Part shown: piece by piece, positions 1 through 42,168 of the stretch
Layout of the letters: each line of letters starts with the position of its first letter
Numbering within the stretch: the first letter of the stretch is position 1
Assembly: GCA_964482765.1 (NCBI GenBank)
Contig: CAYZYZ010000001.1
Location: 1 to 44,135 of the forward strand
DNA from: an uncultured Candidatus Saccharibacteria bacterium
GTDB taxonomy: Bacteria > Patescibacteriota > CPR2_A > CG2-30-33-46 > CAYZYZ01
Length of the DNA stretch: 44,135 nt
Direction: 5' to 3'
Program-made: the position numbers and the translations under genes
Notes under the pieces: model-generated
What the model was told of the DNA's origin: nothing
What the model saw: the letters and a program-made list of their open reading frames with translations, nothing else
Databases searched by the model: none

Positions 1-428
1 ACCCTTGTCAGAAGCTGACGGTGACCGGCTTTTTTCCTGTATCTCTTTTTCGGCTTCATTTTGAAAACTATTACCTTTTTGCCTTTCTCTTGGGAGATGA
101 TTTTCCCTTCTACTTTAGCTTGAGGCACAGTCGGAGTGCCAATTTTCACATCTTTATCTTTGGCAATCAATAAAACATCACCAAAAGTTACCTTTTCCCC
201 CTCTTTTCCCTCCAGCTTCTCTACTAAAAGTTCCTGGTCCTCTTCTACTTTATACTGCTTTCCTCCGGTTTTTATCACAACAAAAGTTCGAGTCTTCTTT
301 AGAGGCTCTTTTTTCGCAAGTGGGGTTTTTTTCGCCTTACGGGCGATCCCGACATCCGTCGGGACCACCTTGGCAGCCTTTTTGGCTGCCTTCTTGGCTG
401 TTTTTTTAATATTTTCTTTTTGTGCCAT
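1..428 (-). CDS. rplU: 50S ribosomal protein L21, 3' end off-window, with ~45-aa Lys/Ala-rich N-terminal extension
   Basis: Absent from the ORF track because it runs off the edge. Manual minus-strand translation from ATG (426-428) gives MAQKENIKKTAKKAAKKAAKVVPTDVGIARKAKK...TFVVIKTGGKQYKVEEDQELLVEKL...KKAGHRQ. TGGKQYKV and GHRQ are L21 hallmarks. Start is uncertain: the SD is weak, and a GTG just before IKTGGKQY is an alternative. Confidence 0.85.
   Translation of the reverse strand, partial: MAQKENIKKTAKKAAKKAAKVVPTDVGIARKAKKTPLAKKEPLKKTRTFVVIKTGGKQYKVEEDQELLVEKLEGKEGEKVTFGDVLLIAKDKDVKIGTPTVPQAKVEGKIISQEKGKKVIVFKMKPKKRYRKKAGHRQLLTR
331..390. repeat. GC-rich triple mini-hairpin module inside the rplU N-terminal extension
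   Basis: Three hairpins: tcgcc-ttac-gggcga, tcccgac-atcc-gtcggga (347-364) and ggcagcc-ttttt-ggctgcc. The same architecture occurs at 9659-9708 in the nrdR tail. Confidence 0.6.
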
Positions 429-5955: not shown

Positions 5956-5973
5956 CTATCCGTCTTTGGCGGA

Positions 5974-6932: not shown

Positions 6933-7172
6933 TTAACTTAACTTGTAGTCTCCTCTTTGACGAGCTTCGAATTCAGCTTGTTTGGAAAGATTCCAATTGT
7001 TTATGGGCGAATAATAACCAACCACTCTCGAGATTCCATAAACATTGGTAGAGCCGCAAAAAGGACAGGCTCCGCCCAGAGGCTCTGCCCGGCGGGCTGC
7101 TAGACCTTCGCTTGAATGGCTTAGTTCGTGCACTTCTTCTCTTGTTAAAGTTTTTAGTTCTGGTGTTTGCAT
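6933..7172 (-). CDS. Stand-alone class III RNR C-terminal glycyl-radical domain
   Basis: CPFCGS...SRVVGYYSPINNWNLSKQAEFEARQR matches the NrdD C-terminal CxxC plus RxxGY...WNxxKxxE...R glycyl-radical signature. It starts 5 nt after the stop of the large nrdD ORF. Confidence 0.8.
   Translation of the reverse strand: MQTPELKTLTREEVHELSHSSEGLAARRAEPLGGACPFCGSTNVYGISRVVGYYSPINNWNLSKQAEFEARQRGDYKLS
7085..7125. repeat. GC-rich hairpin module inside the N-terminal part of the glycyl-radical ORF
   Basis: Coding strand reads gcagcccgccgggcagagcctctgggcggagcc (encodes AARRAEPLGGA). It shares gcctctgg(g)cgg with the recJ insertion at 27771-27835. Confidence 0.45.
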
Positions 7173-7177
7173 ATTTT

Positions 7178-9568
7178 TTACCTTTCTTTAATTAATGTTT
7201 TTGAAATTTTCTTGTTCTTTGCTATTTTTTTCACCAGACCTCTTTCTAGAAGTTCTGCCACGCTCTGCTTTATTGCCTTTCCGCAACCGCCTGATGTCTC
7301 GTCACCGCAGATGATATACTGCTCCTCTAAGGGTACGTTGTCCTGAGCTCCTTTATAGATTGCTTCAGTTTCAAATCCGCAGTGAGGACATCTGTACCAG
7401 ACCCTATCATCTTTTTGTATCTTGTTTTTTATGCCACCTGGTCTATTCACTTCTCTCCTGTATCCAGCACTGATTTTATGACAATCATCACAAAAGGTAA
7501 ATTCCGGGGATATGACAATCTGGGCGCTTAAGGTGTTATCCCAAGTTCTCTTAACTAAAGAGTAAATGCTTTCGGGAGATGGTCGCTGTTCGCCCAAAAA
7601 AACATGAGTTATGCAACCGGCTTCTATCAAATTATTGAACTTGCCTTGTTTTTCTATTCTTTCGATTATAGAAACAGACACGTCAGCAGCCAAATGAATG
7701 CTGTTGGTGTAATAAACTGTACCAGAAGAGATATCGCCTCTCACATACTTGGCGCTCTCTGGGTACTCTTTAAGGTCTACTTTTGCCAGTCTTAGGGAAG
7801 CTGACTCAGCCGGTGTCTCCTCAAGAACAACCTTAAAACCGGTTTCCTTCTCTAATTTTTTGGCTTTCAAATACATAGCGGAGATTATCTTTAAACCTAT
7901 TCTTAAAACATCATCATTTTCGTGAAGCTCCTCGCTGGTTAGGTATTTTACACACTCATTTAAGCCTATGATACCGATTATGTAGCTGGCTTTTTCTAAA
8001 TCAATATAGGGTCTGCCGTCTAAAGCTATCTCGCCGACCTGCGCCATTGGTCTTCCCGGTTCCATTAGTTTCTTTATAAACCCCTTCTTTTCAAAATGAG
8101 CCTTCATTGCCAAATCCATTGCCTCTTCAACCTCTTTTACAACCTCGTCTAGCGCACCCTTCTTTTTTCTTCCTGCTCTATAAGCGGCTTGAGGCAGATT
8201 TATGGTTACATTCTGGAAGCCGCAGAAACGCATACTTTCAGGATGCTCTATCACATACTTGTCGGTGATATTAGTTCTGAGGCGACAGCACATCGAAAGA
8301 TTGACCTTGTCGCGGTCATAAACAAAATATGGGGCACCATTTTCTGAAGCGATTTTCGAGGCATACTCTAGAAGTTCTCTTTGTTTAGGGTCTCTAAAGG
8401 AGTTCTCATCTACATGAAGATTCATCTTCGGGAAGGGAAAAGGCTTGCCATCAAAATCTCCCTCACGCCAAACATCCATCATTGCTTTTAAGAATCTTTG
8501 AGCTTCATCCTCATAATCGCCATAGGTCTTACCAGTATATTTTCCTTTGGGTCCAATGGCGGGAACATTTTTTAGGTAATCAGGAACTCCAAGGTGAACA
8601 TTAAAATCTATAAACAGGGTCTGACCACCCCTCGAGAAAGCATTTTGAGAGCAGGAAAAGATTAAATACTGCGCCTCTTGTTTTAAATCTTCCTCATCTA
8701 TATCAACAAGGTAAGGGGCATAAAAAATGTTGACATAAGTCAAACCTAAAGCACCGGCATAGTAAGCCTGCATCGAAGCCAAAAAGGTATTCAGGTGTCC
8801 GGTTAGAGTTGAAGCGTATCTTGCCGGAGTGGAGACGGTACTTAAATTCTCTAATCTTAAACCATATTTTTTCAAATACTCTATCGAATGAGCTGAGCAG
8901 TAAGCTCGAACTGGATATCCTAAATCGTGAAGATGGATGGCTCCCTTCATGTGAGCATCAGCAATCTCCGGAGAGAAGATTTCTTTTAAAGCATACTGCT
9001 TTAGGATCGTTTCCGCGATTCCTAAGTTTACCGCCTCAGGATTATTTGATTTTATATTGCTATTCTCTTTGGTATTAGAAAGAATCAGCTGGCTGATGTT
9101 ATAGGTAGACATACCAATAACTTCCTGCTTTTTGAGTTTGGCTTGATAGCCTCTCTCGAAAAGCTCATTGTCCACCAGTTCTCTTAAAAGGTTTATGTTT
9201 ATAGTTCTAATGCCAGAGGCTAATACTTTTCTCTCAACAGCAAAGGCTATATCGGAAGCCTCCTCTTTGGTAAGCTGAGCTTCTCTTTCAAGGGCACTGA
9301 CAATTCTTTTTCTATCCCAATTAGAGGTTTCTCCCTTAGTGGGAGCAGAAACTAAAAGGTGAAGATCGGTAGAGTCTTTATAATCCTCTTTCTTTTTTAC
9401 CACCTTCAAGATCTCGGTCATCTCCAACTGACTCTCGGGCAGCTTCTTGTATTTCTCAAAATTCTTTCCAATAACCTCGATTACCTCCTCTACCGCCTCT
9501 CTCGGCAGACCAGTATTCTCTATTTCCCTTGTAAGGTATTGGAAGAGTCCTCGGTTCTCTTTAGTCAT
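7178..9568 (-). CDS. nrdD: Anaerobic ribonucleoside-triphosphate reductase large chain (ATP-cone plus catalytic barrel), lacking the glycyl-radical motif
   Basis: 796 aa. ATP-cone-like SNWDRKRIVSALERE...LLRELVDNELFERGY, then a NrdD-like core (MCCRL, GGQTLFIDFNV). The C-terminus has CDDC...CPHC zinc-ribbon cysteines but no RxxGY. Confidence 0.92.
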   Translation of the reverse strand: MTKENRGLFQYLTREIENTGLPREAVEEVIEVIGKNFEKYKKLPESQLEMTEILKVVKKKEDYKDSTDLHLLVSAPTKGETSNWDRKRIVSALEREAQLTKEEASDIAFAVERKVLASGIRTININLLRELVDNELFERGYQAKLKKQEVIGMSTYNISQLILSNTKENSNIKSNNPEAVNLGIAETILKQYALKEIFSPEIADAHMKGAIHLHDLGYPVRAYCSAHSIEYLKKYGLRLENLSTVSTPARYASTLTGHLNTFLASMQAYYAGALGLTYVNIFYAPYLVDIDEEDLKQEAQYLIFSCSQNAFSRGGQTLFIDFNVHLGVPDYLKNVPAIGPKGKYTGKTYGDYEDEAQRFLKAMMDVWREGDFDGKPFPFPKMNLHVDENSFRDPKQRELLEYASKIASENGAPYFVYDRDKVNLSMCCRLRTNITDKYVIEHPESMRFCGFQNVTINLPQAAYRAGRKKKGALDEVVKEVEEAMDLAMKAHFEKKGFIKKLMEPGRPMAQVGEIALDGRPYIDLEKASYIIGIIGLNECVKYLTSEELHENDDVLRIGLKIISAMYLKAKKLEKETGFKVVLEETPAESASLRLAKVDLKEYPESAKYVRGDISSGTVYYTNSIHLAADVSVSIIERIEKQGKFNNLIEAGCITHVFLGEQRPSPESIYSLVKRTWDNTLSAQIVISPEFTFCDDCHKISAGYRREVNRPGGIKNKIQKDDRVWYRCPHCGFETEAIYKGAQDNVPLEEQYIICGDETSGGCGKAIKQSVAELLERGLVKKIAKNKKISKTLIKER

Positions 9569-9569
9569 A

Positions 9570-9626
9570 TTTACCCCGTTAGATGGTCTACCCCATTAGA
9601 TTATTGCTTTTATCTAACGGGGTTTA
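9570..9626. repeat. Family A element filling the nrdR-nrdD intergenic space
   Basis: TTTA|ccccgttagatggtctaccccattagattattgcttttatctaacgggg|TTTA. The nrdR stop TAA is the complement of TTA in the right TTTA. The nrdD ATG lies one base beyond the left TTTA. Confidence 0.8.
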
Positions 9627-10163
9627 CCTTTTAGTTACCTTAGATCTTTTCTTTTTTTCCGCCCTAGGCGCCACGCCCCGACCTGTCGGGGGACCAGCCT
9701 TGGGCTGGAATCCTTTTTTCTTGAAAATTTTTAACTCCTGCTCGAAAGATTTGATGTCATCAAAAGATTTGTAGACTGAAGCGAAACGAATGTAGGCAAC
9801 TTTGTCGGTCTTTTTTAAGGCTTTTATTGCCAACTCCCCAATCTCTCTGCTCTTCACCTCGGTGTCGCAAGTGGCTTGGAGTTTTCTTTCTATGTCGGAC
9901 ACTATCTTATCTATCTGCTCTTTGGAAATCGGCCTCTTCTCGCAAGCCTTCATTATCCCGAGCTCGAGTTTGTTTCTGTCAAAACTCTCTCTTCGTCTAC
10001 CTTTCTTAATTACCAGGAGGTTGGCGAGTTCGACCCTTTCATAAGTGGTGAAACGGTTCTTACATTTCAGGCACTTCCTCCTTCTTCTAATCGCTCGGAA
10101 ATCATCAACGTCTCGCGAATCAATAACCTTGGTATCAGGAGAAAGGCAGTTGGGGCATTTCAT
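9624..10163 (-). CDS. nrdR: Transcriptional repressor NrdR with ~25-aa GC-rich C-terminal extension
   Basis: MKCPNCLSPDTKVIDSR...CLKCKNRFTTYERVE zinc ribbon plus ATP-cone. SD aaaggaggg lies upstream. Confidence 0.93.
   Translation of the reverse strand: MKCPNCLSPDTKVIDSRDVDDFRAIRRRRKCLKCKNRFTTYERVELANLLVIKKGRRRESFDRNKLELGIMKACEKRPISKEQIDKIVSDIERKLQATCDTEVKSREIGELAIKALKKTDKVAYIRFASVYKSFDDIKSFEQELKIFKKKGFQPKAGPPTGRGVAPRAEKKKRSKVTKR
9659..9708. repeat. GC-rich triple mini-hairpin module forming the nrdR C-terminal tail
   Basis: Hairpins ccgccctaggcg, ccccga-cctg-tcgggg (9676-9691) and ccagcc-ttgg-gctgg. It encodes KAGPPTGRGVAPRAE. Confidence 0.6.
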
Positions 10164-24197: not shown

Positions 24198-24347
24198 ATC
24201 CCACACTAACTTTGCCCTCAACTTTAGGGACGGCACGCCCCGATGGCCATCGGGGACCCTATTCGGGTCAGTGCCGCAGCCTGTTGACTAATTTTCTTAT
24301 TAATTTTGCGTAATTCTTGGTTAAGAAACGCGAAGTTAGTGCGGGAT
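24198..24347. other. GC-rich structured island closed by a 15-bp long-range stem (ncRNA or composite repeat)
   Basis: atcccacactaactt (24198-24212) pairs with aagttagtgcgggat (24333-24347). Inside, cggcac/gtgccg encloses the hairpins ccccgatggccatcgggg (24238-24255) and gaccctattcgggtc. Confidence 0.4.
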
Positions 24348-26585: not shown

Positions 26586-28376
26586 TTATTTTCTCCTTTT
26601 TGAAGCCTTTAAGTCTAAAATCTCTAATTGAACGGTGGAAACCCCGAGATAAAAATTCTCGCCCAATTTAAAGATAAAGTCAACGTATCCTTCGATTTCA
26701 AACTCGTTCTCCAGATCCCCCCTATTGAAAGCTATAGCGTTCATTCTTTTGCAATTTTTCAAGAACCTAATTTTTAAGTGATCGTTCAAACCCACGTGGC
26801 GTTTTTCTAAAATTTTAGCCCTCCTGATCAAAAAAACAGGATCAGGATTAGAAGCCCCAAAAGGCTCCAGCATTTTGAGGTTTTTATAAAATTCGTGATT
26901 TAAATCCTCTGTGTTTATCTCTAAATCAACTGGTATTATCTTCCTGATTTCTTTTATCTTCCTGGAGGCTATCTCGGTAAGCTCTCGAACAATCTCTTCA
27001 TGATTCTCTGTCTCGTAAATGAAACCAGCTGCCTCCTTGTGACCACCAACCTTTTTGAATAAATGACTTAATTTCTCTAAGGCTTTTACAATATTAAAAC
27101 CTTGATAGCTTCTTGCGGAACCCTTAGAAAGCTCTCCCTTGTTTTCTATCACCAAAGCCGGCCTTTGATATTCTTCAGCCAATCTTCCGGCTACAATTCC
27201 GGAAATAGCTGATGGCCAGTTCTCTTTTGCCAAAATTATTATCTTCTGGCTGGGGCTTAAGAAACCGAACTCTCCCTTGGCTTCTCTTAAAACCCTGTCG
27301 GTTTCTTCCCGTCTCTTTTTATTAAGTTGTTCGATTTTGTTTATCAGCTTAAAAGCCTCGATCCTAGAACGGGTAATTAAAAGCATAAACGCCCAATTGG
27401 CGTGGTCCATTCTGCCAGCGGCATTCAGTCTGGGCGCCAAATAAAAAGCGATATCATTCTCCTTTCCGTTTCTTATTGTTTTTTTAAGCTCTAAAATTCC
27501 TATTCTTCTTGTTTTTTTAAAGACAAGCATTCCGAACTTGACAAGTATTCGGTTCTCGCTTATTAAAGGAACACAATCCCCAATAGTACCGATAACGACC
27601 AAGTCTAAAAGCCATTTTAGGAATGTTTCGCTTTTGTGGATATCCTTCAGGAGCCCTTGGGATAATTTAAAAGCCACACCTACGCCGGCTAATTGCTTAA
27701 AAGGATATTTGCAGTTCTCTTGCTTAGGATTTATAACCGCCAATGACCTGGGTACTAAATCTTTGGGTCTATTTTTGATTTTTGATTTTTTCCGCCAAAG
27801 GTGGACCCGCCTCTGGCGGGGATTTTTGATTTTCCTTGGTACCTCGTGGTGATCTGTAATAATAACATCCATTCCCAGTTTTTTGGCTTCCTCTACCTCT
27901 TTTATATTTCTTATTCCACAATCAATAGTTATCAAAAGCTTAATCTTTTTCTTGGCAATTTTTTTTATTGCTTCAGAATTTAAGCCATATCCTTCTTTAT
28001 CACGATGAGGAATATAGGTAACAACCTCTTGACCCAAAAAATTAAAAACTTCATACAGCAAAGCAGTAGCAGTGACACCGTCAGCATCATAATCACCAAA
28101 AATCGCTATTTTCTCTTTATTCTTTAGGGCTTTTTTGATACGTAGGACAGCCTTTTTTAAATCTTTCATTAAAAAAGGGTCAAAAAGATTTTCATAAGAA
28201 GGGTCTAGGAATTCTTCAATCTTTTTTTCTTTCTCTTTTTTCAAGTCTCTAATGCTAAAAATTTCTCTATTATAAAGAAGCTGAAGGATAACCTCGGGAA
28301 TCTGCTGATGTTCTTTAATAATTTTTTTCGGTAATGGTTTTTGGACTTTCCACTCTTTTGATAACTCTCTTACCAT
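26586..28376 (-). CDS. recJ: Single-stranded-DNA-specific exonuclease RecJ
   Basis: DHH family motifs FGDYDADGVTA, ITIDCG and IITDHH, plus DHHA1 (GGHKEAAG). Confidence 0.93.
   Translation of the reverse strand: MVRELSKEWKVQKPLPKKIIKEHQQIPEVILQLLYNREIFSIRDLKKEKEKKIEEFLDPSYENLFDPFLMKDLKKAVLRIKKALKNKEKIAIFGDYDADGVTATALLYEVFNFLGQEVVTYIPHRDKEGYGLNSEAIKKIAKKKIKLLITIDCGIRNIKEVEEAKKLGMDVIITDHHEVPRKIKNPRQRRVHLWRKKSKIKNRPKDLVPRSLAVINPKQENCKYPFKQLAGVGVAFKLSQGLLKDIHKSETFLKWLLDLVVIGTIGDCVPLISENRILVKFGMLVFKKTRRIGILELKKTIRNGKENDIAFYLAPRLNAAGRMDHANWAFMLLITRSRIEAFKLINKIEQLNKKRREETDRVLREAKGEFGFLSPSQKIIILAKENWPSAISGIVAGRLAEEYQRPALVIENKGELSKGSARSYQGFNIVKALEKLSHLFKKVGGHKEAAGFIYETENHEEIVRELTEIASRKIKEIRKIIPVDLEINTEDLNHEFYKNLKMLEPFGASNPDPVFLIRRAKILEKRHVGLNDHLKIRFLKNCKRMNAIAFNRGDLENEFEIEGYVDFIFKLGENFYLGVSTVQLEILDLKASKRRK
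27771..27835. repeat. GC-rich double-hairpin module with flanking direct repeats, inserted in frame in recJ just after the DHH motif
   Basis: Coding strand reads gaaaatcaaaaat CCCCGCCAGAGGCGGGTCCACCTTTGGCGG aaaaaatcaaaaatcaaaaat. It encodes KIKN-PRQRRVHLWRKKS-KIKN. Confidence 0.65.
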
Positions 28377-28581: not shown

Positions 28582-28636
28582 TTCCGCCAAGGGCGGATCT
28601 CCTCCAGAGGCGGATGAGCCTTTGGCTCAAGCCTTG
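28582..28636. repeat. GC-rich hairpin modules (CCGCC-N-GGCGG type) in the secF-recJ spacer
   Basis: Hairpins tccgccaagggcgga, tcctccagaggcgga and gagcctttggctc / ccaaggcttgagcc. Confidence 0.55.
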
Positions 28637-35253: not shown

Positions 35254-37110
35254 ATGTATGCTGAAATTTCAACAAATGCGCCTGAGCTTTTTACATATAA
35301 AATCCCTAAAAGTCTTTTGCCTAAAATCAAAATTGGTCAGTTAGTAAAAATTTCTCTCGGCAAAAGAATAAATCAGGGAATAGTATTTGAAATTACCAAA
35401 AAGAAGCCTCGTTTTAGAACCAAAGATATTCTAGAAATAATTCATCCGGAACCATTGCTTTCTTCTTACCAGGTCAAGCTGGCAAATTGGCTCTCTTTAT
35501 ATTACTTTTCATCGATTTATCAGTCTTTAAAAAATATCAAGATTGACGGCTTGGAAAAAAGTTTAGAAAATCAGCCATTAAAGCCTAAACGCTTCTATAC
35601 TCCAGTGTATAAGAGTAAAAAAGATTATAAATATAAAAGATTTATATTTTTTGGTGGAAATGAACTTTATCCAAAGATTGCTTCAAAATTCCTGAAGAAT
35701 AAAAAACAGGTTTTAATCCTCTTCCCTGATAACTTCAGTTTGGAAAAATTCTTAAACAATAATCTGTTTAAATCTAAAAAAACCTCTGTTATTACAAGCA
35801 ACCTCGCATCAAAAGAAAGGATTAAAGAGTGGTTTAGGATTAAAAACGAAGAAAGTAAACTGATTTTAGGAACAAGAACCGCAATATTCTCGCCCTTCAA
35901 AAATCTAGGGTTAATTATTTTGGATAAAGAATATGAGGATGGATACAAGCAGGAAAAAACGCCGAAATATGACTCAAAAGAAGTAGCTGAATTTTTACAA
36001 GAGCTTACTAACTGTACCTTGGTCCTGCAAACAGACATCCCGACCCTAGAAAATTACTACCGACTAAAAAATGAATACAGAATATTAAAATCCAAACTTT
36101 CAAAGAAACAAACCAAAATAATAATCGACGCCGAGCCTTTAAAGTTTTCTGTCTTAGGATCAAAAACCGAAAGCCTCATCAGGAAAAATCTTGAAGAAAA
36201 AAAACAAACAATTCTCTTTCTAAATAGAAAAGGTAGGGAGATTTTCGTATCCTGTACTGATTGCGGTTTCTCCCCCACCTGCCCTAATTGCGAGGTGCCA
36301 TTTACAACCACCGCAAATTACTTAGTGTGCAACCACTGCGGACATAAAGAAGAAATTCATTTGACCTGTAGAAAATGCCAGAGTCCGCTCATCAAAAAAA
36401 TTGGAATAGGCACTGAGAAACTCGAAGAGGAAGTTAAAAAAATATTTCCCGAAAAGAGGATTGAAAGAATTGATGAAACGACCAGAAAAACTCTAAACCC
36501 CATTAGAAATCCGCCTATTGTAAATGGCGGCAGTCGCCAGTGGCGACTTATTTCTAACGGGGTAAACAGAAAAAAAATAGAGCAAGCTGATATAATTATC
36601 GGCACCCAGATGATAAAGGGATTAGATTTTAAAAACACCGGGCTTTTGGTGTTCTTCTCAATCGACAATATGCTCAATCTTCCTTCGTATAAAGCTTTAG
36701 AGAATGCTCAAAAAATCATATCCTCACTAATTTCGAAATTACCGGAAAGGGCGCACGTTGTTATCAAAACTTCTAATCCTGAGAGTGAATTAATACAGAC
36801 TATAAAAAAGAGTGATTATCTATCATTTTTCGAAAAAGAGTTTAAAAACAGGAAAAAATTTCATTACCCGCCTTTCTTTGATTTGATCTCAATTATTTTC
36901 CCAGAGGAAAAACAAAAAGAGGTTAAGAAAGAATTAAAGAGTATCAAGAATTATGAAATTATAGGTCCTTTTAAACCTTTTCTTCCCAAAGGACGAGGCA
37001 AAAATAGAAAGATTATTGTCTTAAAAACCTCAAAAAACAGCTTTTTTTATGATAAAATATCTAAGATTAAAAAAATATCCATAACCAGAAACCCAGAATC
37101 AATTATTTAA
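35254..37110 (+). CDS. priA: Primosomal protein N' (PriA) homologue with degenerate helicase motifs and a 23-aa repeat-derived insertion
   Basis: Cys-rich region CTDCG...CPNC...CNHCG...CRKC and GTQMIKGLDF are PriA hallmarks. The positions of Walker A (FFGGNELY) and DExH (DKEY) are degenerate. Confidence 0.85.
   Translation: MYAEISTNAPELFTYKIPKSLLPKIKIGQLVKISLGKRINQGIVFEITKKKPRFRTKDILEIIHPEPLLSSYQVKLANWLSLYYFSSIYQSLKNIKIDGLEKSLENQPLKPKRFYTPVYKSKKDYKYKRFIFFGGNELYPKIASKFLKNKKQVLILFPDNFSLEKFLNNNLFKSKKTSVITSNLASKERIKEWFRIKNEESKLILGTRTAIFSPFKNLGLIILDKEYEDGYKQEKTPKYDSKEVAEFLQELTNCTLVLQTDIPTLENYYRLKNEYRILKSKLSKKQTKIIIDAEPLKFSVLGSKTESLIRKNLEEKKQTILFLNRKGREIFVSCTDCGFSPTCPNCEVPFTTTANYLVCNHCGHKEEIHLTCRKCQSPLIKKIGIGTEKLEEEVKKIFPEKRIERIDETTRKTLNPIRNPPIVNGGSRQWRLISNGVNRKKIEQADIIIGTQMIKGLDFKNTGLLVFFSIDNMLNLPSYKALENAQKIISSLISKLPERAHVVIKTSNPESELIQTIKKSDYLSFFEKEFKNRKKFHYPPFFDLISIIFPEEKQKEVKKELKSIKNYEIIGPFKPFLPKGRGKNRKIIVLKTSKNSFFYDKISKIKKISITRNPESII
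36494..36566. repeat. Family A element inserted in frame inside priA
   Basis: TAAA|ccccattagaaatccgcctattgtaaatggcggcagtcgccagtggcgacttatttctaacgggg|TAAA. The 65-nt core plus one 4-nt flank totals 69 nt, or 23 codons. Confidence 0.85.
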
Positions 37111-39830: not shown

Positions 39831-39903
39831 CCTTCGGCCAAAGGCCGATCGTCCTCTCTTCGAGAGCCTGAGGGCTCCTCAGAGCCTCGAACGGCTGGAC
39901 GAT
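39831..39903. repeat. GC-rich nested stem-loop island between rbfA and the nrnA-like gene
   Basis: Minus strand reads atcgtcc agccg ttcgag gctctgagg agc cctcag gctc tcgaa gaga ggacgat, followed by cggcc-ttt-ggccg. Confidence 0.5.
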
Positions 39904-40336: not shown

Positions 40337-42168
40337 CTTCTTATTTTTTCTTCCTTGGTTATAAATATAAGTTCATCACCTTCTTTAATATCAGTGATTC
40401 CGAAAATGTTCATTCCGAATTCCTTATCACCGGTGACTTCAGAAACATCGTCTTTGACAATCTTTAATCCTTCAATCTTTCCATAATTTGCTCCGTCTTC
40501 TCTTTCTACTTTTACTTCCATCTCCTTGGTTACCATACCTCTAAGGAGTTTGGCGCCCAAAATCATATCCTTTTTACCGAATTTAAAGATTTTTAGAACC
40601 TTTGCTTTGGCTTGTTCTCTTTCAATTATCTCTTTAGGAAGAAGGTGTGATAGAGCTTCTTTAATGTCATCCACAACATTGTAAATGATATCATAAAGCC
40701 TAACCTCGACATTGAGTTTCTCTATTGCTTTCTGTGCCGATAGACTAATACCAACCCTGAAACCTATAACTATGGCATCATTTCCGGCTAAGGTAACATC
40801 AGATTCCGAAATTTCGCCAATACCTTCACGGGTTATATTGACTGCAACTTCTTCGGTACTTAATTTTTTTAAGGCTAAGGTTAAGGCTTCGAGCGAACCC
40901 TTAACATCTGTCTTTAAAATTACCTTCAATTTCTTAATCTTTCCTTCTTTTATTTTGTCAGAAATGCCTTTAACGCCGAGTGCCCTTCTGTCTCTTAATG
41001 CCTTGAGGCTTTTGAACCTCTTTCTTTCAGCAACCTCGGCTTTGGCTTCTTTTTCTGAAGCGACTCCTTCTAAAAGCTCGCCTACCTCTGGAACATCTTT
41101 TAAGCCTAGAATCCTTACCGGTGTCCCGGGTCCTGCTTCTTTTATTTTTTTAAGGCTAGAATCCTCGATGCTTTTTACTTTTCCAAAAACAGAACCAGAG
41201 ACAACAAAATCGCTTACTCTTAAAGTTCCATTTTGAATCAAAGCTGTAGCAACAGGGCCTCTTCCCTTATCCAAGTGCGATTCTATTATCGTACCCCATA
41301 ATTTTCCTTTGGGATTTGCTTTTGGCTCCTTGAGTTCTGAAACCAGAAGAATCATCTCTAGAATCTGGTCGATGCCTTCGCCTGTTTTGGCGGAAACTGG
41401 GATAAAAACCGTATCTCCCCCCCACTCTTCGGTAATTACTTTTTGCTCGGAAAGCTCTTTTTTTACTCTTTCTATATCCGCCTCGGGTTTGTCAATTTTA
41501 TTTATGGCAACCACAAAAGGTAAGTCAGCGCTTCTAAGATGATTTATTGACTCAATTGTCTGAGGTTTTACGCCGTCATCGGCAGCCACCACCAAAACGC
41601 CCACATCCGTAACCTGAGCTCCCCTAGCTCTCATAGTGGAAAAGGCTTCATGACCCGGCGTATCCAAAAAGGTAATTTTTTTACCATCCTTTTCGACTTG
41701 ATAAGCACCAATGTGCTGGGTTATACCCCCAGATTCAGCGGCTACCACATTCGTTTTTCTTATTGAGTCTAAAAGCGAGGTTTTCCCATGATCAACATGA
41801 CCCATAACTATAACCACCGGGGGTCGCGGCTCGGTTTTTTCTTCGTCGGCTTCCAGTTCTTTGGCATTCTTTTTAGGTGTGCTATCTTCTTCTAAAATTT
41901 CTCTGGCGAAAAATCCAAAATCTTGAGAGATAATAGCAGCGGTTTCAAAATCTATATCCTCATTTATGGTAGCCATTACGCCATTTTTAACTAATAGAGA
42001 TATAACCTCCACAACAGGTTTGCCGAGTTTTTCCGCCAGCTCTTTTACCTGAATTATGGACGGAATTTCTATTGTTTTTTCAGCTAAAGGCTCGCCTCGA
42101 TTCGGAGTCGAAGCGGGCTGATCCCGATTTTCATCGGGATTTCCTATTTGTTCTTTAACTTTTGTCAT
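40324..42168 (-). CDS. infB: Translation initiation factor IF-2
   Basis: GTPase motifs GHVDHGKTSLLD, DTPGH and NKID, plus the conserved C-terminal domains. 614 aa. Confidence 0.96.
   Translation of the reverse strand: MTKVKEQIGNPDENRDQPASTPNRGEPLAEKTIEIPSIIQVKELAEKLGKPVVEVISLLVKNGVMATINEDIDFETAAIISQDFGFFAREILEEDSTPKKNAKELEADEEKTEPRPPVVIVMGHVDHGKTSLLDSIRKTNVVAAESGGITQHIGAYQVEKDGKKITFLDTPGHEAFSTMRARGAQVTDVGVLVVAADDGVKPQTIESINHLRSADLPFVVAINKIDKPEADIERVKKELSEQKVITEEWGGDTVFIPVSAKTGEGIDQILEMILLVSELKEPKANPKGKLWGTIIESHLDKGRGPVATALIQNGTLRVSDFVVSGSVFGKVKSIEDSSLKKIKEAGPGTPVRILGLKDVPEVGELLEGVASEKEAKAEVAERKRFKSLKALRDRRALGVKGISDKIKEGKIKKLKVILKTDVKGSLEALTLALKKLSTEEVAVNITREGIGEISESDVTLAGNDAIVIGFRVGISLSAQKAIEKLNVEVRLYDIIYNVVDDIKEALSHLLPKEIIEREQAKAKVLKIFKFGKKDMILGAKLLRGMVTKEMEVKVEREDGANYGKIEGLKIVKDDVSEVTGDKEFGMNIFGITDIKEGDELIFITKEEKIRSLPH

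Follow-up and report, generated by a model that had tools for sequence, protein, structure and literature searches.

GC-rich mini-hairpin modules in intergenic DNA, RNA genes and conserved protein genes of an uncultured Candidatus Saccharibacteria bacterium

The DNA analyzed here, referred to as the window, is a stretch of 44,135 nt (contig CAYZYZ010000001.1, positions 1 to 44,135 of the forward strand) from an uncultured Candidatus Saccharibacteria bacterium. The elements in question are short GC-rich hairpins built on the arms CCCGA and TCGGG, which occur both between genes and in frame inside conserved genes. The source assembly (GCA_964482765.1, here G000, with its contigs labelled C1, C2 and so on) amounts to 808 kb in 83 contigs, with 37.5% GC. 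The five CCCGA..TCGGG hairpins listed in a preliminary description of the window were all found again, at 348-363, 486-501, 9677-9690, 24239-24254 and 42123-42138. The coordinates given there hold one extra flanking base per side, and the loop of six to eight nucleotides does not apply to the nrdR copy, in which CCCGA and TCGGG are separated by four.

The first copy belongs to a three-hairpin module (326-392, minus strand) in the N-terminal extension of rplU, which encodes ribosomal protein L21. The module is in frame, encodes KKAAKKAAKVVPTDVGIARKAKK, and consists of GGCAGCC-N5-GGCTGCC (372-390), TCCCGAC-N4-GTCGGGA (347-364) and TCGCC-N5-GGCGA (332-346), after which the coding strand has an A-run; the Pfam L21 domain begins at residue 49 of the product. 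The 69-nt module at the 3' end of nrdR (9645-9713, minus strand), also in frame and encoding GFQPKAGPPTGRGVAPRAEKKKR, is composed of CCAGCC-N3-GGCTGG (9694-9708), CCCCGA-N4-TCGGGG (9676-9691) and CGCC-N3-GGCG (9660-9670), again with a subsequent A-run. The architecture ascribed to both genes in the preliminary description is thus indeed the same on the coding strand, running from the GGCAGCC/CCAGCC type through the CCCGA type and the CGCC type to the A-run. In the rodA-rplU spacer, the second copy forms a 30-bp perfect palindrome, CCCGCACCCCGAC-CCTG-GTCGGGGTGCGGG (479-508, no strand assigned), with GTAG on the minus strand at a distance of 1 nt before the palindrome, and a further hairpin, GCCTCGCT-N14-AGCGAGGC (443-472, no strand), is read from the sequence of the same spacer. 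The copy CCCGAT-GGCC-ATCGGG (24239-24254, no strand) is found within a GC-rich composite island between convergent genes. The N-terminus of infB, encoding IF-2, carries an in-frame hairpin chain (42074-42144, minus strand, encoding GNPDENRDQPASTPNRGEP) in which ATCCCGAT-N4-ATCGGGAT (42121-42140) is followed by more hairpins. The first 29 nt of this chain are nearly identical to the rplL module on C12, infB and rplL having GGAAxTCCCGATGAAAATCGGGATCAGCC in common. An Rfam scan of the window returned zero hits at the gathering score, and no Rfam family explains the copies in it.

The recurrence noted in the preliminary description is confirmed, with five hairpins in the window against a mean of 0.09, and never more than one, in dinucleotide-preserving shuffles. 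Genome-wide, CCCGA-N4-10-TCGGG occurs in 67 copies, a lower bound, with 1.6 expected from a first-order Markov model. The CCCGA 5-mer by itself is not enriched (999 observed and 896 expected), while TCGGG follows within 3-12 nt in 69 of the 467 plus-strand CCCGA occurrences; the enriched unit is therefore the hairpin and not the word. A DNA-uptake-sequence model was rejected, as the CCCGA and CCCGAC k-mers are barely or not enriched outside the hairpins. GC-rich stems overall are 3-5 times over-represented in G000 and show a strong polarity, the C-rich arm being 5' in 532 and the G-rich arm in 192 cases (~106 expected each).

The common unit has a length of 15 nt, TC-NNCC-N3-GGNN-GA, with the stems TCCGCC (16 times) and TCAGCC (12 times), and also TCACCC, TCGGCC and TCGTCC. 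The CCCGA hairpin is an 18-nt variant of the same family, TCCCGAY-N4-RTCGGGA. All unit lengths are multiples of three, and the units join head to tail with GA/TC junctions, often as chains of one to three or more. The composite that recurs in genes can be written, on the coding strand, as AAGGAAGT-CCCGAY-N4-RTCGGG-AT-CA[CG]CC-N3-GG[GC]TG-AAAAAAG; composites are 30-84 nt long.

Units other than the CCCGA type are also present in the window. Two abutting 15-nt units, TCCGCC-aaa-GGTGGA and CCCGCC-tct-GGCGGG, lie in frame in recJ (27791-27820, minus strand), flanked by the direct repeats AAAATCAAAAAT. Intergenic DNA contains TCCGCC-aag-GGCGGA (28583-28597) and TGAGCC-ttt-GGCTCA (28615-28629), together spanning 28583-28629, as well as TCGGCC-aaa-GGCCGA (39834-39848), and TCCGTC-ttt-GGCGGA, with one G.T mismatch, is located at 5959-5973 (no strand is assigned to any of these). 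A 24-nt GC hairpin insert (7071-7094, minus strand, peptide RRAEPLGG) is found in the small glycyl-radical open reading frame (ORF) downstream of nrdD. These are six of the seven CCGCC-type places that were read, out of eight given in the preliminary description. The seventh, 36510-36531 at the priA place, was not upheld, since the scan gives AGTCGCC-agt-GGCGACT (36532-36548), overlapping TGGCG..CGCCA (36525-36539). The nrdD gene itself is split (6936-9568) into a 796-aa ORF and the separate small glycyl-radical ORF. The hairpin was rejected as the cause of this split: among the three genomes of the same order used for comparison (G001-G003), the 24-nt insert is missing in G003 and G001, and because both of these have the same split, the latter was not caused by the insert.

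The preliminary description had regarded the hairpins as a second class of palindromes. They do constitute a strongly enriched class of palindromic modules, but not a separate one, being nested in the AACCCCGTTAGA-type (class A) elements (C3:9329, C8:17091). On C8 (16649-17941), a 431-aa open frame spans a class-A element and a CCCGAC palindrome and joins metallophosphoesterase-like and HD-domain-like parts (judged by eye from the translation); possibly these are two genes read through inserted repeats.

In a crude map of 756 ORFs, which take up 85% of the genome, ORFs contain 22 of the 67 CCCGA hairpins and leave 45 outside; given this coverage, the density is ~12 times higher in non-coding DNA. 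The non-coding sites comprise long perfect palindromes (some with terminator-like A- and T-runs), spacers of tRNA arrays, and the spacer after the 16S rRNA gene; the sites in RNA genes are a helix tip of RNase P RNA and the 23S rRNA. The modules have mostly landed in non-coding DNA, within stable RNA genes, and at sites where another hairpin has its tip or loop. Multi-hairpin spacers of ~80 nt recur between the tRNA genes of the arrays on C20, C22, C26, C50 and C59 (for instance ..GGGCTTCCGCCC..GGCGC-CCCGACC.GGGTCGGG-GC..CCCCAAGCGGGG..). Near-identical GC-rich structured stretches with no Rfam match were seen at C19:2770-2860 and C23:229-300.

In-frame and stop-free copies are present in rplU, nrdR, infB, mnmG, polA, rpsB, tsaD, rplL, rsmA, rplV, rpsE, recJ, a PrgI-family gene and a PpiC-type gene. 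Frames are intact in at least 14 genes, in agreement with the earlier suggestion that the palindromes are tolerated as protein tails and linkers. Pfam identifies L21, S2, S5, L22, L7/L12, TsaD, MnmG, RsmA, the PpiC-type isomerase and the PrgI-family membrane protein as hosts; NrdR, IF-2, PolA and RecJ are additional ones, with infB and nrdR assigned by homologue alignments. In seven of the nine hosts covered by the Pfam scan, the hairpin-coded residues lie outside the matched domains, as seen in the ribosomal proteins, TsaD, the PpiC-type and the PrgI-family protein; in the other two, MnmG and RsmA, they interrupt the domain. The NrdR tail is predicted to be unstructured, with a predicted local distance difference test (pLDDT) score of 35-41, but this is weak evidence of disorder because the confidence of the whole model is modest (mean pLDDT 61.5). 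In-gene copies persist only in those places (disordered tails, linkers and N-terminal extensions) where an in-frame Pro/Gly/Ala/Thr/Arg-rich peptide does no harm.

The 3' end of nrdR is found in three states at the DNA level. The locus L062, from a relative more than 90% identical, is empty, lacking the 69-nt hairpin module as well as the 53-nt AACCCCGTTAGA-type element; in L151 the hairpin module is present alone; and L152 and G000 have the module together with the class-A element. In the window, this 53-nt palindromic element (9571-9623) is located directly behind the nrdR stop codon, and GGTAA flanks it on both sides. NrdR homologues of up to 85% identity stop 3-15 residues past ELKGLKKK, where G000 adds GFQPKAGPPTGRGVAPRAE. 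A member of the same 90% cluster (P0125, 157 aa) is also devoid of the hairpin-coded segment. Missing in all homologues at or below 85% identity and in this cluster member, the C-terminal segment of NrdR is the clearest case of an insertion, as had been anticipated. The N-terminus of IF-2 agrees with it: G000 has 31 residues before TIEIP and the relatives (68-75% identity) have 12-23; the excess of 8-19 residues corresponds to the hairpin chain.

The claim that the hairpins form the N-terminal extension of L21 was not sustained. In G003 this extension has 42 residues, against 47, and lacks GC hairpins, so the extension is older than the hairpins, which sit in a pre-existing, fast-evolving, Lys-rich segment. 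In the rodA-rplU spacer, the ~150 nt with two hairpins of G000 correspond to 55 nt without any hairpin in G003. The copy in 23S rRNA is a clean 36-nt insert, ATCCAGCACCCCGACCCAGGTCGGGGTGCTGGGTGA, missing in G001-G003. The rplV tail and the rpsE N-terminal extension have in common an 84-nt segment with 78 of 84 positions identical. Contig ends are found near this module (C25:82-300, C74:870-1129), and a break in the assembled ribosomal protein operon is probably due to the 84-nt repeat.

The selfish behavior put forward in the preliminary description is borne out by a presence that differs between close relatives and by near-identical modules in unrelated genes: the modules are inserted DNA that spread within the G000 genome. 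The same variation and the same sharing speak against another interpretation, by which the hairpins would be cellular signals selected in place and not mobile (terminators, stabilizers of transcript ends, sites of RNA processing or of host proteins). We consider it unlikely. It is favored by the intergenic perfect palindromes of up to 30 bp that have an A-run before and a T-run after them (C25:8289, C11:5731, C3:24849), by the perfection of the stems with no decayed copies, and by the retention of identical stems across the phylum. It is at odds with the in-frame copies in at least 14 genes and the copies in 23S rRNA and RNase P RNA. Moreover, the copies do not behave as intrinsic terminators, a T-run being present within 22 nt downstream in only ~5 of the 45 non-coding ones, and the coding copies are unable to terminate because they have an A-run after the hairpin. 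Single copies have likely been exapted as terminators.

What is conserved in the modules is revealed by their reading frames and by changes in their stems. The composite is read as EVPTDVGITRRVKK in L22, S5, L21 and the PrgI-family protein, and a shift of one base gives GSPDENRDQPQAEK in L12 and IF-2. The second hairpin keeps its pairing through double changes (CACCC/GGGTG, CGCC/GGCG, CACCA/TGGTG), with the peptide altered from TRRV to ARKA to TSMV. From these compensatory changes, the use of two frames, and the sharing of 84 nt by rplV and rpsE, it follows that the nucleic-acid palindrome is conserved and not the peptide. The opposite proposal, in which the repeated unit is a peptide (PTDVGI, FQPKAxPP) selected in ribosomal-protein tails and recombined between genes, the palindromy resulting from Pro/Gly/Ala codons, is extremely improbable. 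The P-T-x-V-G frame is used in 13 of the ~18 clearly coding copies, the FQPKA(G/D)PP reading recurs in distant lineages, and the hosts are enriched for Lys-rich ribosomal-protein tails, all as this proposal would have it. However, about two thirds of the copies are non-coding or in RNA genes, L12 and IF-2 use the second frame, and the stems change in a compensatory manner in the DNA while the peptide alters. The motifs were not seen in non-palindromic synonymous codons in G003 L21 or in NrdR or IF-2 homologues. In addition, 67 exact stems with no excess of one-mismatch variants (52 found, 58.6 expected) are more than chance palindromy can produce.

Among the two-mismatch variants, 74 are perfectly compensated. 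For the hairpins in long ORFs, no sense-strand bias toward G.U was found at the first unpaired position (28 G.U and 38 A.C). Selection for mRNA structure was rejected on the basis of this lack of a sense-strand G.U excess and of one-mismatch or wobble variants above background; the missing wobble excess on the transcribed strand is a further argument against cellular signals. Perfect Watson-Crick palindromy, with the stem sequence kept, points to a process or recognition at the DNA level. The constraint is on perfect DNA palindromy and stem sequence, neither on the peptide nor on mRNA pairing.

A survey of 301 Patescibacteria genomes, including G000, shows how widely the family is distributed. 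The form CCCGAC-N4-GTCGGG is present 27 times in G000 and 0-5 times per genome in the other 300, where some of the matches are rRNA hairpins. The 16-mer CCCGACGGATGTCGGG in genomes of the family f53 is a 16S V1 hairpin and was dismissed as unrelated. The pattern TCMGCC-N3-GGCKGA occurs in 158 of the 301 genomes, with expansions to 103, 80 and 47 copies, and its reversed control is near zero in the same set. The 30-mer made of TCAGCC-N3-GGCTGA and TCCGCC-N3-GGCGGA was found at no fewer than 120 loci in many phyla (~0.004 expected by chance). Its hosts include Patescibacteria, Ignavibacteria, Gamma- and Deltaproteobacteria, Bacteroidota and Omnitrophota, and further Elusimicrobia, Planctomycetes, Verrucomicrobiota and Binatia. 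Among the loci listed, it often forms the tip of an inverted repeat that flanks it, or lies within a tRNA loop. The pair or its close variants are also present in G000 (C13:4854, C26:8560, C7:8725). In G186 and G233, the 30-mer lies in frame in large unrelated ORFs as FQPKA(D/G)PP(L/M)AE, which is the reading of the first part of the G000 NrdR tail. The hairpin family is therefore phylum-wide and cross-phylum and not a peculiarity of G000.

Two kinds of genes were considered as partners in mobility. G000 has three RAYT-like (REP-associated Y1 tyrosine transposase-like, where REP stands for repetitive extragenic palindromic) Y1_Tnp genes of 200-256 aa (C15:603-1205, C2:31189-31932, C49:4517-5287), which could suggest that the hairpins are REP elements spread by a RAYT. 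In about 8 of the 67 CCCGA hairpins, the rplU leader copy among them, GTAG precedes the 5' side of the stem by no more than 2 nt. A Y1 gene is present in 82% of the hairpin-rich genomes and 41% of the rest, with a weak correlation between the counts (rho 0.26). The absence of a target duplication would also be consistent with Y1 enzymes, which do not produce one. In our opinion this origin is very unlikely. The C15 and C49 genes each have a palindrome of their own on both sides (GGTGACWGTCACC; TGCCAAGGGT-N3-ACCCTTGGCA), and beside the C2 copy the sequence passes into a stretch of N. In other genomes (G004, G080, G186, G189, G024, G231), 8 of 10 Y1 copies have a palindrome of their own, again a different one; for the two remaining copies (G024, G231) the scan gave no flanking GC-rich hairpin of any kind. 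The palindromes beside two of the three G000 genes and these 8 of 10 differ from the mini-hairpin units, which never flank the RAYT-like genes examined. In addition, 59 of the 67 copies are without GTAG, and the hairpin count correlates more strongly with that of GIY-YIG genes. Membership in the REP/RAYT system was therefore rejected, the Y1 genes having other palindromes and the GTAG/CGTC tag being confined to a minority. A classical miniature inverted-repeat transposable element (MITE) was rejected by the test for a target-site duplication of fixed length; A-rich direct repeats of 8-12 nt flank the nrdR, recJ and polA inserts only.

Physical linkage to the hairpins was seen for one gene only; it encodes a small nuclease of the GIY-YIG type and no transposase. 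Four such ORFs of 78-100 aa were found in G000 (C7:14910-15119, C33:3727-3942, C50:4-198, C5:23362-23562), and three of the four are preceded by a 5' fragment of a tRNA with a hairpin chain in its D-loop. An intact tRNA follows the C7 and C33 ORFs; the C50 ORF runs off the contig end. The same layout is observed in G004, G012, G039 and G189; there the hairpins occupy the anticodon loop or the T-loop, or stand in for the anticodon arm. The small GIY-YIG gene of G186 has GC hairpins on its flanks, and no tRNA fragment was identified beside it. In G189, TCCCGAT-GCAC-ATCGGGA stands in place of the anticodon arm, and in G186 GACCCGAC-GCAC-GTCGGGTC comes after the GIY-YIG ORF. Across the 301 genomes, the hairpin count correlates with the number of GIY-YIG genes (Spearman 0.49, p = 2e-19), and less strongly with that of Y1_Tnp genes (0.26). 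At the loci of the 30-mer, 13 of 17 small GIY-YIG ORFs are within ~100 nt of the hairpin pair, beside intact and hairpin-interrupted tRNA copies. In G003, a small GIY-YIG ORF was also noticed within the 16S rRNA gene, in the V1 region (L166, G003:C26:486-1486).

Taken together, the CCCGA hairpins are probably a lineage-specific 18-nt variant of a widespread family of mobile GC-rich mini-hairpin modules, linked to the nuclease. The modules would be the non-autonomous partner of a cassette encoding an 80-100-aa Slx1/UPF0213-like GIY-YIG nuclease. This cassette adjoins tRNA genes, and the same hairpins are found in its partial tRNA copies, within the D-, the anticodon- or the T-loop. Copying into new sites may proceed either by structure-directed nicking followed by repair or by template switching at A-rich tracts. 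The partnership with the nuclease is supported, and we infer it from the linkage described above.

Several observations weigh against this interpretation. A fixed target-site duplication was not found: for 237 hairpin chains, flanking repeats of at least 6 nt occur in 2.1%, as compared with 2.8% at random. No autonomous copy with the CCCGA variant was found in G000, where the cassettes use TCCGAC, TCCGCC and CGGCCC stems. The correlation of hairpin count with GIY-YIG count ignores phylogeny and the general load of mobile elements, the Y1_Tnp and GIY-YIG counts being themselves correlated at 0.29. The absence of decayed copies is odd for neutral MITEs and could instead reflect selection for a cellular function, and some copies resemble bidirectional terminators (C25:8289, C11:5731). 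Translation of the in-frame copies is deduced from their intact frames only. Finally, G000 is a fragmented metagenome-assembled genome (MAG) with contigs broken near repeats, and for this reason some contexts are incomplete and the CCCGA copy numbers are lower bounds.

A broader proposal, which we put forward tentatively and hold to be rather doubtful, is that of a mobile system without a transposase, made up of the hairpin modules and the bare 80-100-aa GIY-YIG nuclease, which would target the structure of DNA and not its sequence, move between phyla and seed peptides of five or six codons. Its targets might be the loops of folded single-stranded DNA, such as the cloverleaves of tRNA genes, hairpin tips and the tips of rRNA helices. 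As a by-product, the peptide units PTxVG and FQPKAxPP.AE would be written into the tails and linkers of essential proteins and might be a source of new disordered segments in the proteins of ultra-small bacteria.

As the empty, intermediate and filled states of nrdR show, inserted selfish DNA makes up part of the tails and extensions of NrdR, IF-2 and ribosomal proteins in a bacterium of the Candidate Phyla Radiation (CPR). This is relevant to how the unusual protein extensions and the rRNA insertions of the CPR arose. What seemed an oddity of G000 is tied to a cross-phylum hairpin family that is linked to a minimal nuclease gene. If the link to the nuclease is true, the family may represent mobile elements that are directed by structure and lack a transposase, a candidate that can be tested directly. 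In practical terms, hairpin repeats of this kind fragment MAG assemblies and distort or inflate gene calls through spurious extensions and fused ORFs.

Among known systems, the Rickettsia palindromic elements (RPEs), which reportedly go back to Ogata et al. in 2000, share several properties with the modules. Both are palindromic mobile repeats of a reduced AT-rich genome, located in intergenic DNA and in frame inside conserved genes, to which they add surface or linker peptides. RPEs (reviewed in PMC10969869) are single elements of ~100-150 bp from one genus, and the modules, of 15-18 nt and chained, are set apart from them by length and not by a comparison of sequences. The in-frame, non-disrupting insertion in conserved genes is found here, and the repeat length of ~100-150 bp is not. 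Unlike RPEs, the modules have perfect stems without decayed copies, are spread over many phyla, and at tRNA loci are physically linked to the gene of a small GIY-YIG nuclease.

The REP elements and bacterial interspersed mosaic elements (BIMEs) associated with RAYT transposases are palindromes tagged with GTAG and CGTC (PMC3733652). The modules resemble them as short GC-rich palindromes of high copy number, single or clustered, without target duplication and, in a minority, with GTAG. They differ in that most copies are untagged, many are inside genes or RNA genes, and the RAYT-like genes are accompanied by other palindromes.

Yeast mitochondrial GC clusters, the 'byp' elements of Magnusiomyces, and the hairpin repeats of placozoan and sponge mitochondria are examples from organelles. 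Like the modules, such GC clusters and hairpin elements, found in organelle genomes that are AT-rich (PMC7813641), are small GC-rich, hairpin-forming mobile inserts, which occupy intergenic DNA, rRNA genes and protein-coding genes. In contrast to them, the modules are bacterial, their stems are conserved across phyla, and all coding copies keep the frame, so that no translational bypass is needed.

A survey of rRNA insertions in the CPR reported many uncharacterized ORF-less inserts of less than 200 bp, mostly at the top or base of stem-loops, as well as GIY-YIG ORFs in non-intron insertions (PMC11270868). The 36-nt insert in 23S rRNA matches these descriptions, and so does the G003 ORF of the GIY-YIG type located within 16S rRNA. 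The hairpin units, their spread beyond rRNA and their presence in protein-coding genes are not part of that survey (PMC11270868). No description of the hairpin family was found in the full-text literature searched, which covered palindromic elements and GIY-YIG in Patescibacteria/CPR, no search having been aimed at the nuclease/double-hairpin cassette.

Phage T4 SegB is a free-standing GIY-YIG homing endonuclease encoded in a tRNA gene cluster. The arrangement of the Seg genes is similar to that of the cassettes, with a small GIY-YIG gene beside tRNA genes and a duplicated part of the target gene. The Seg proteins are phage-borne and equipped with DNA-binding domains, whereas the ORF described here is a bare catalytic domain of 80-100 aa, and, unlike Seg, it is accompanied by conserved hairpin modules, of which many copies are also present without it.

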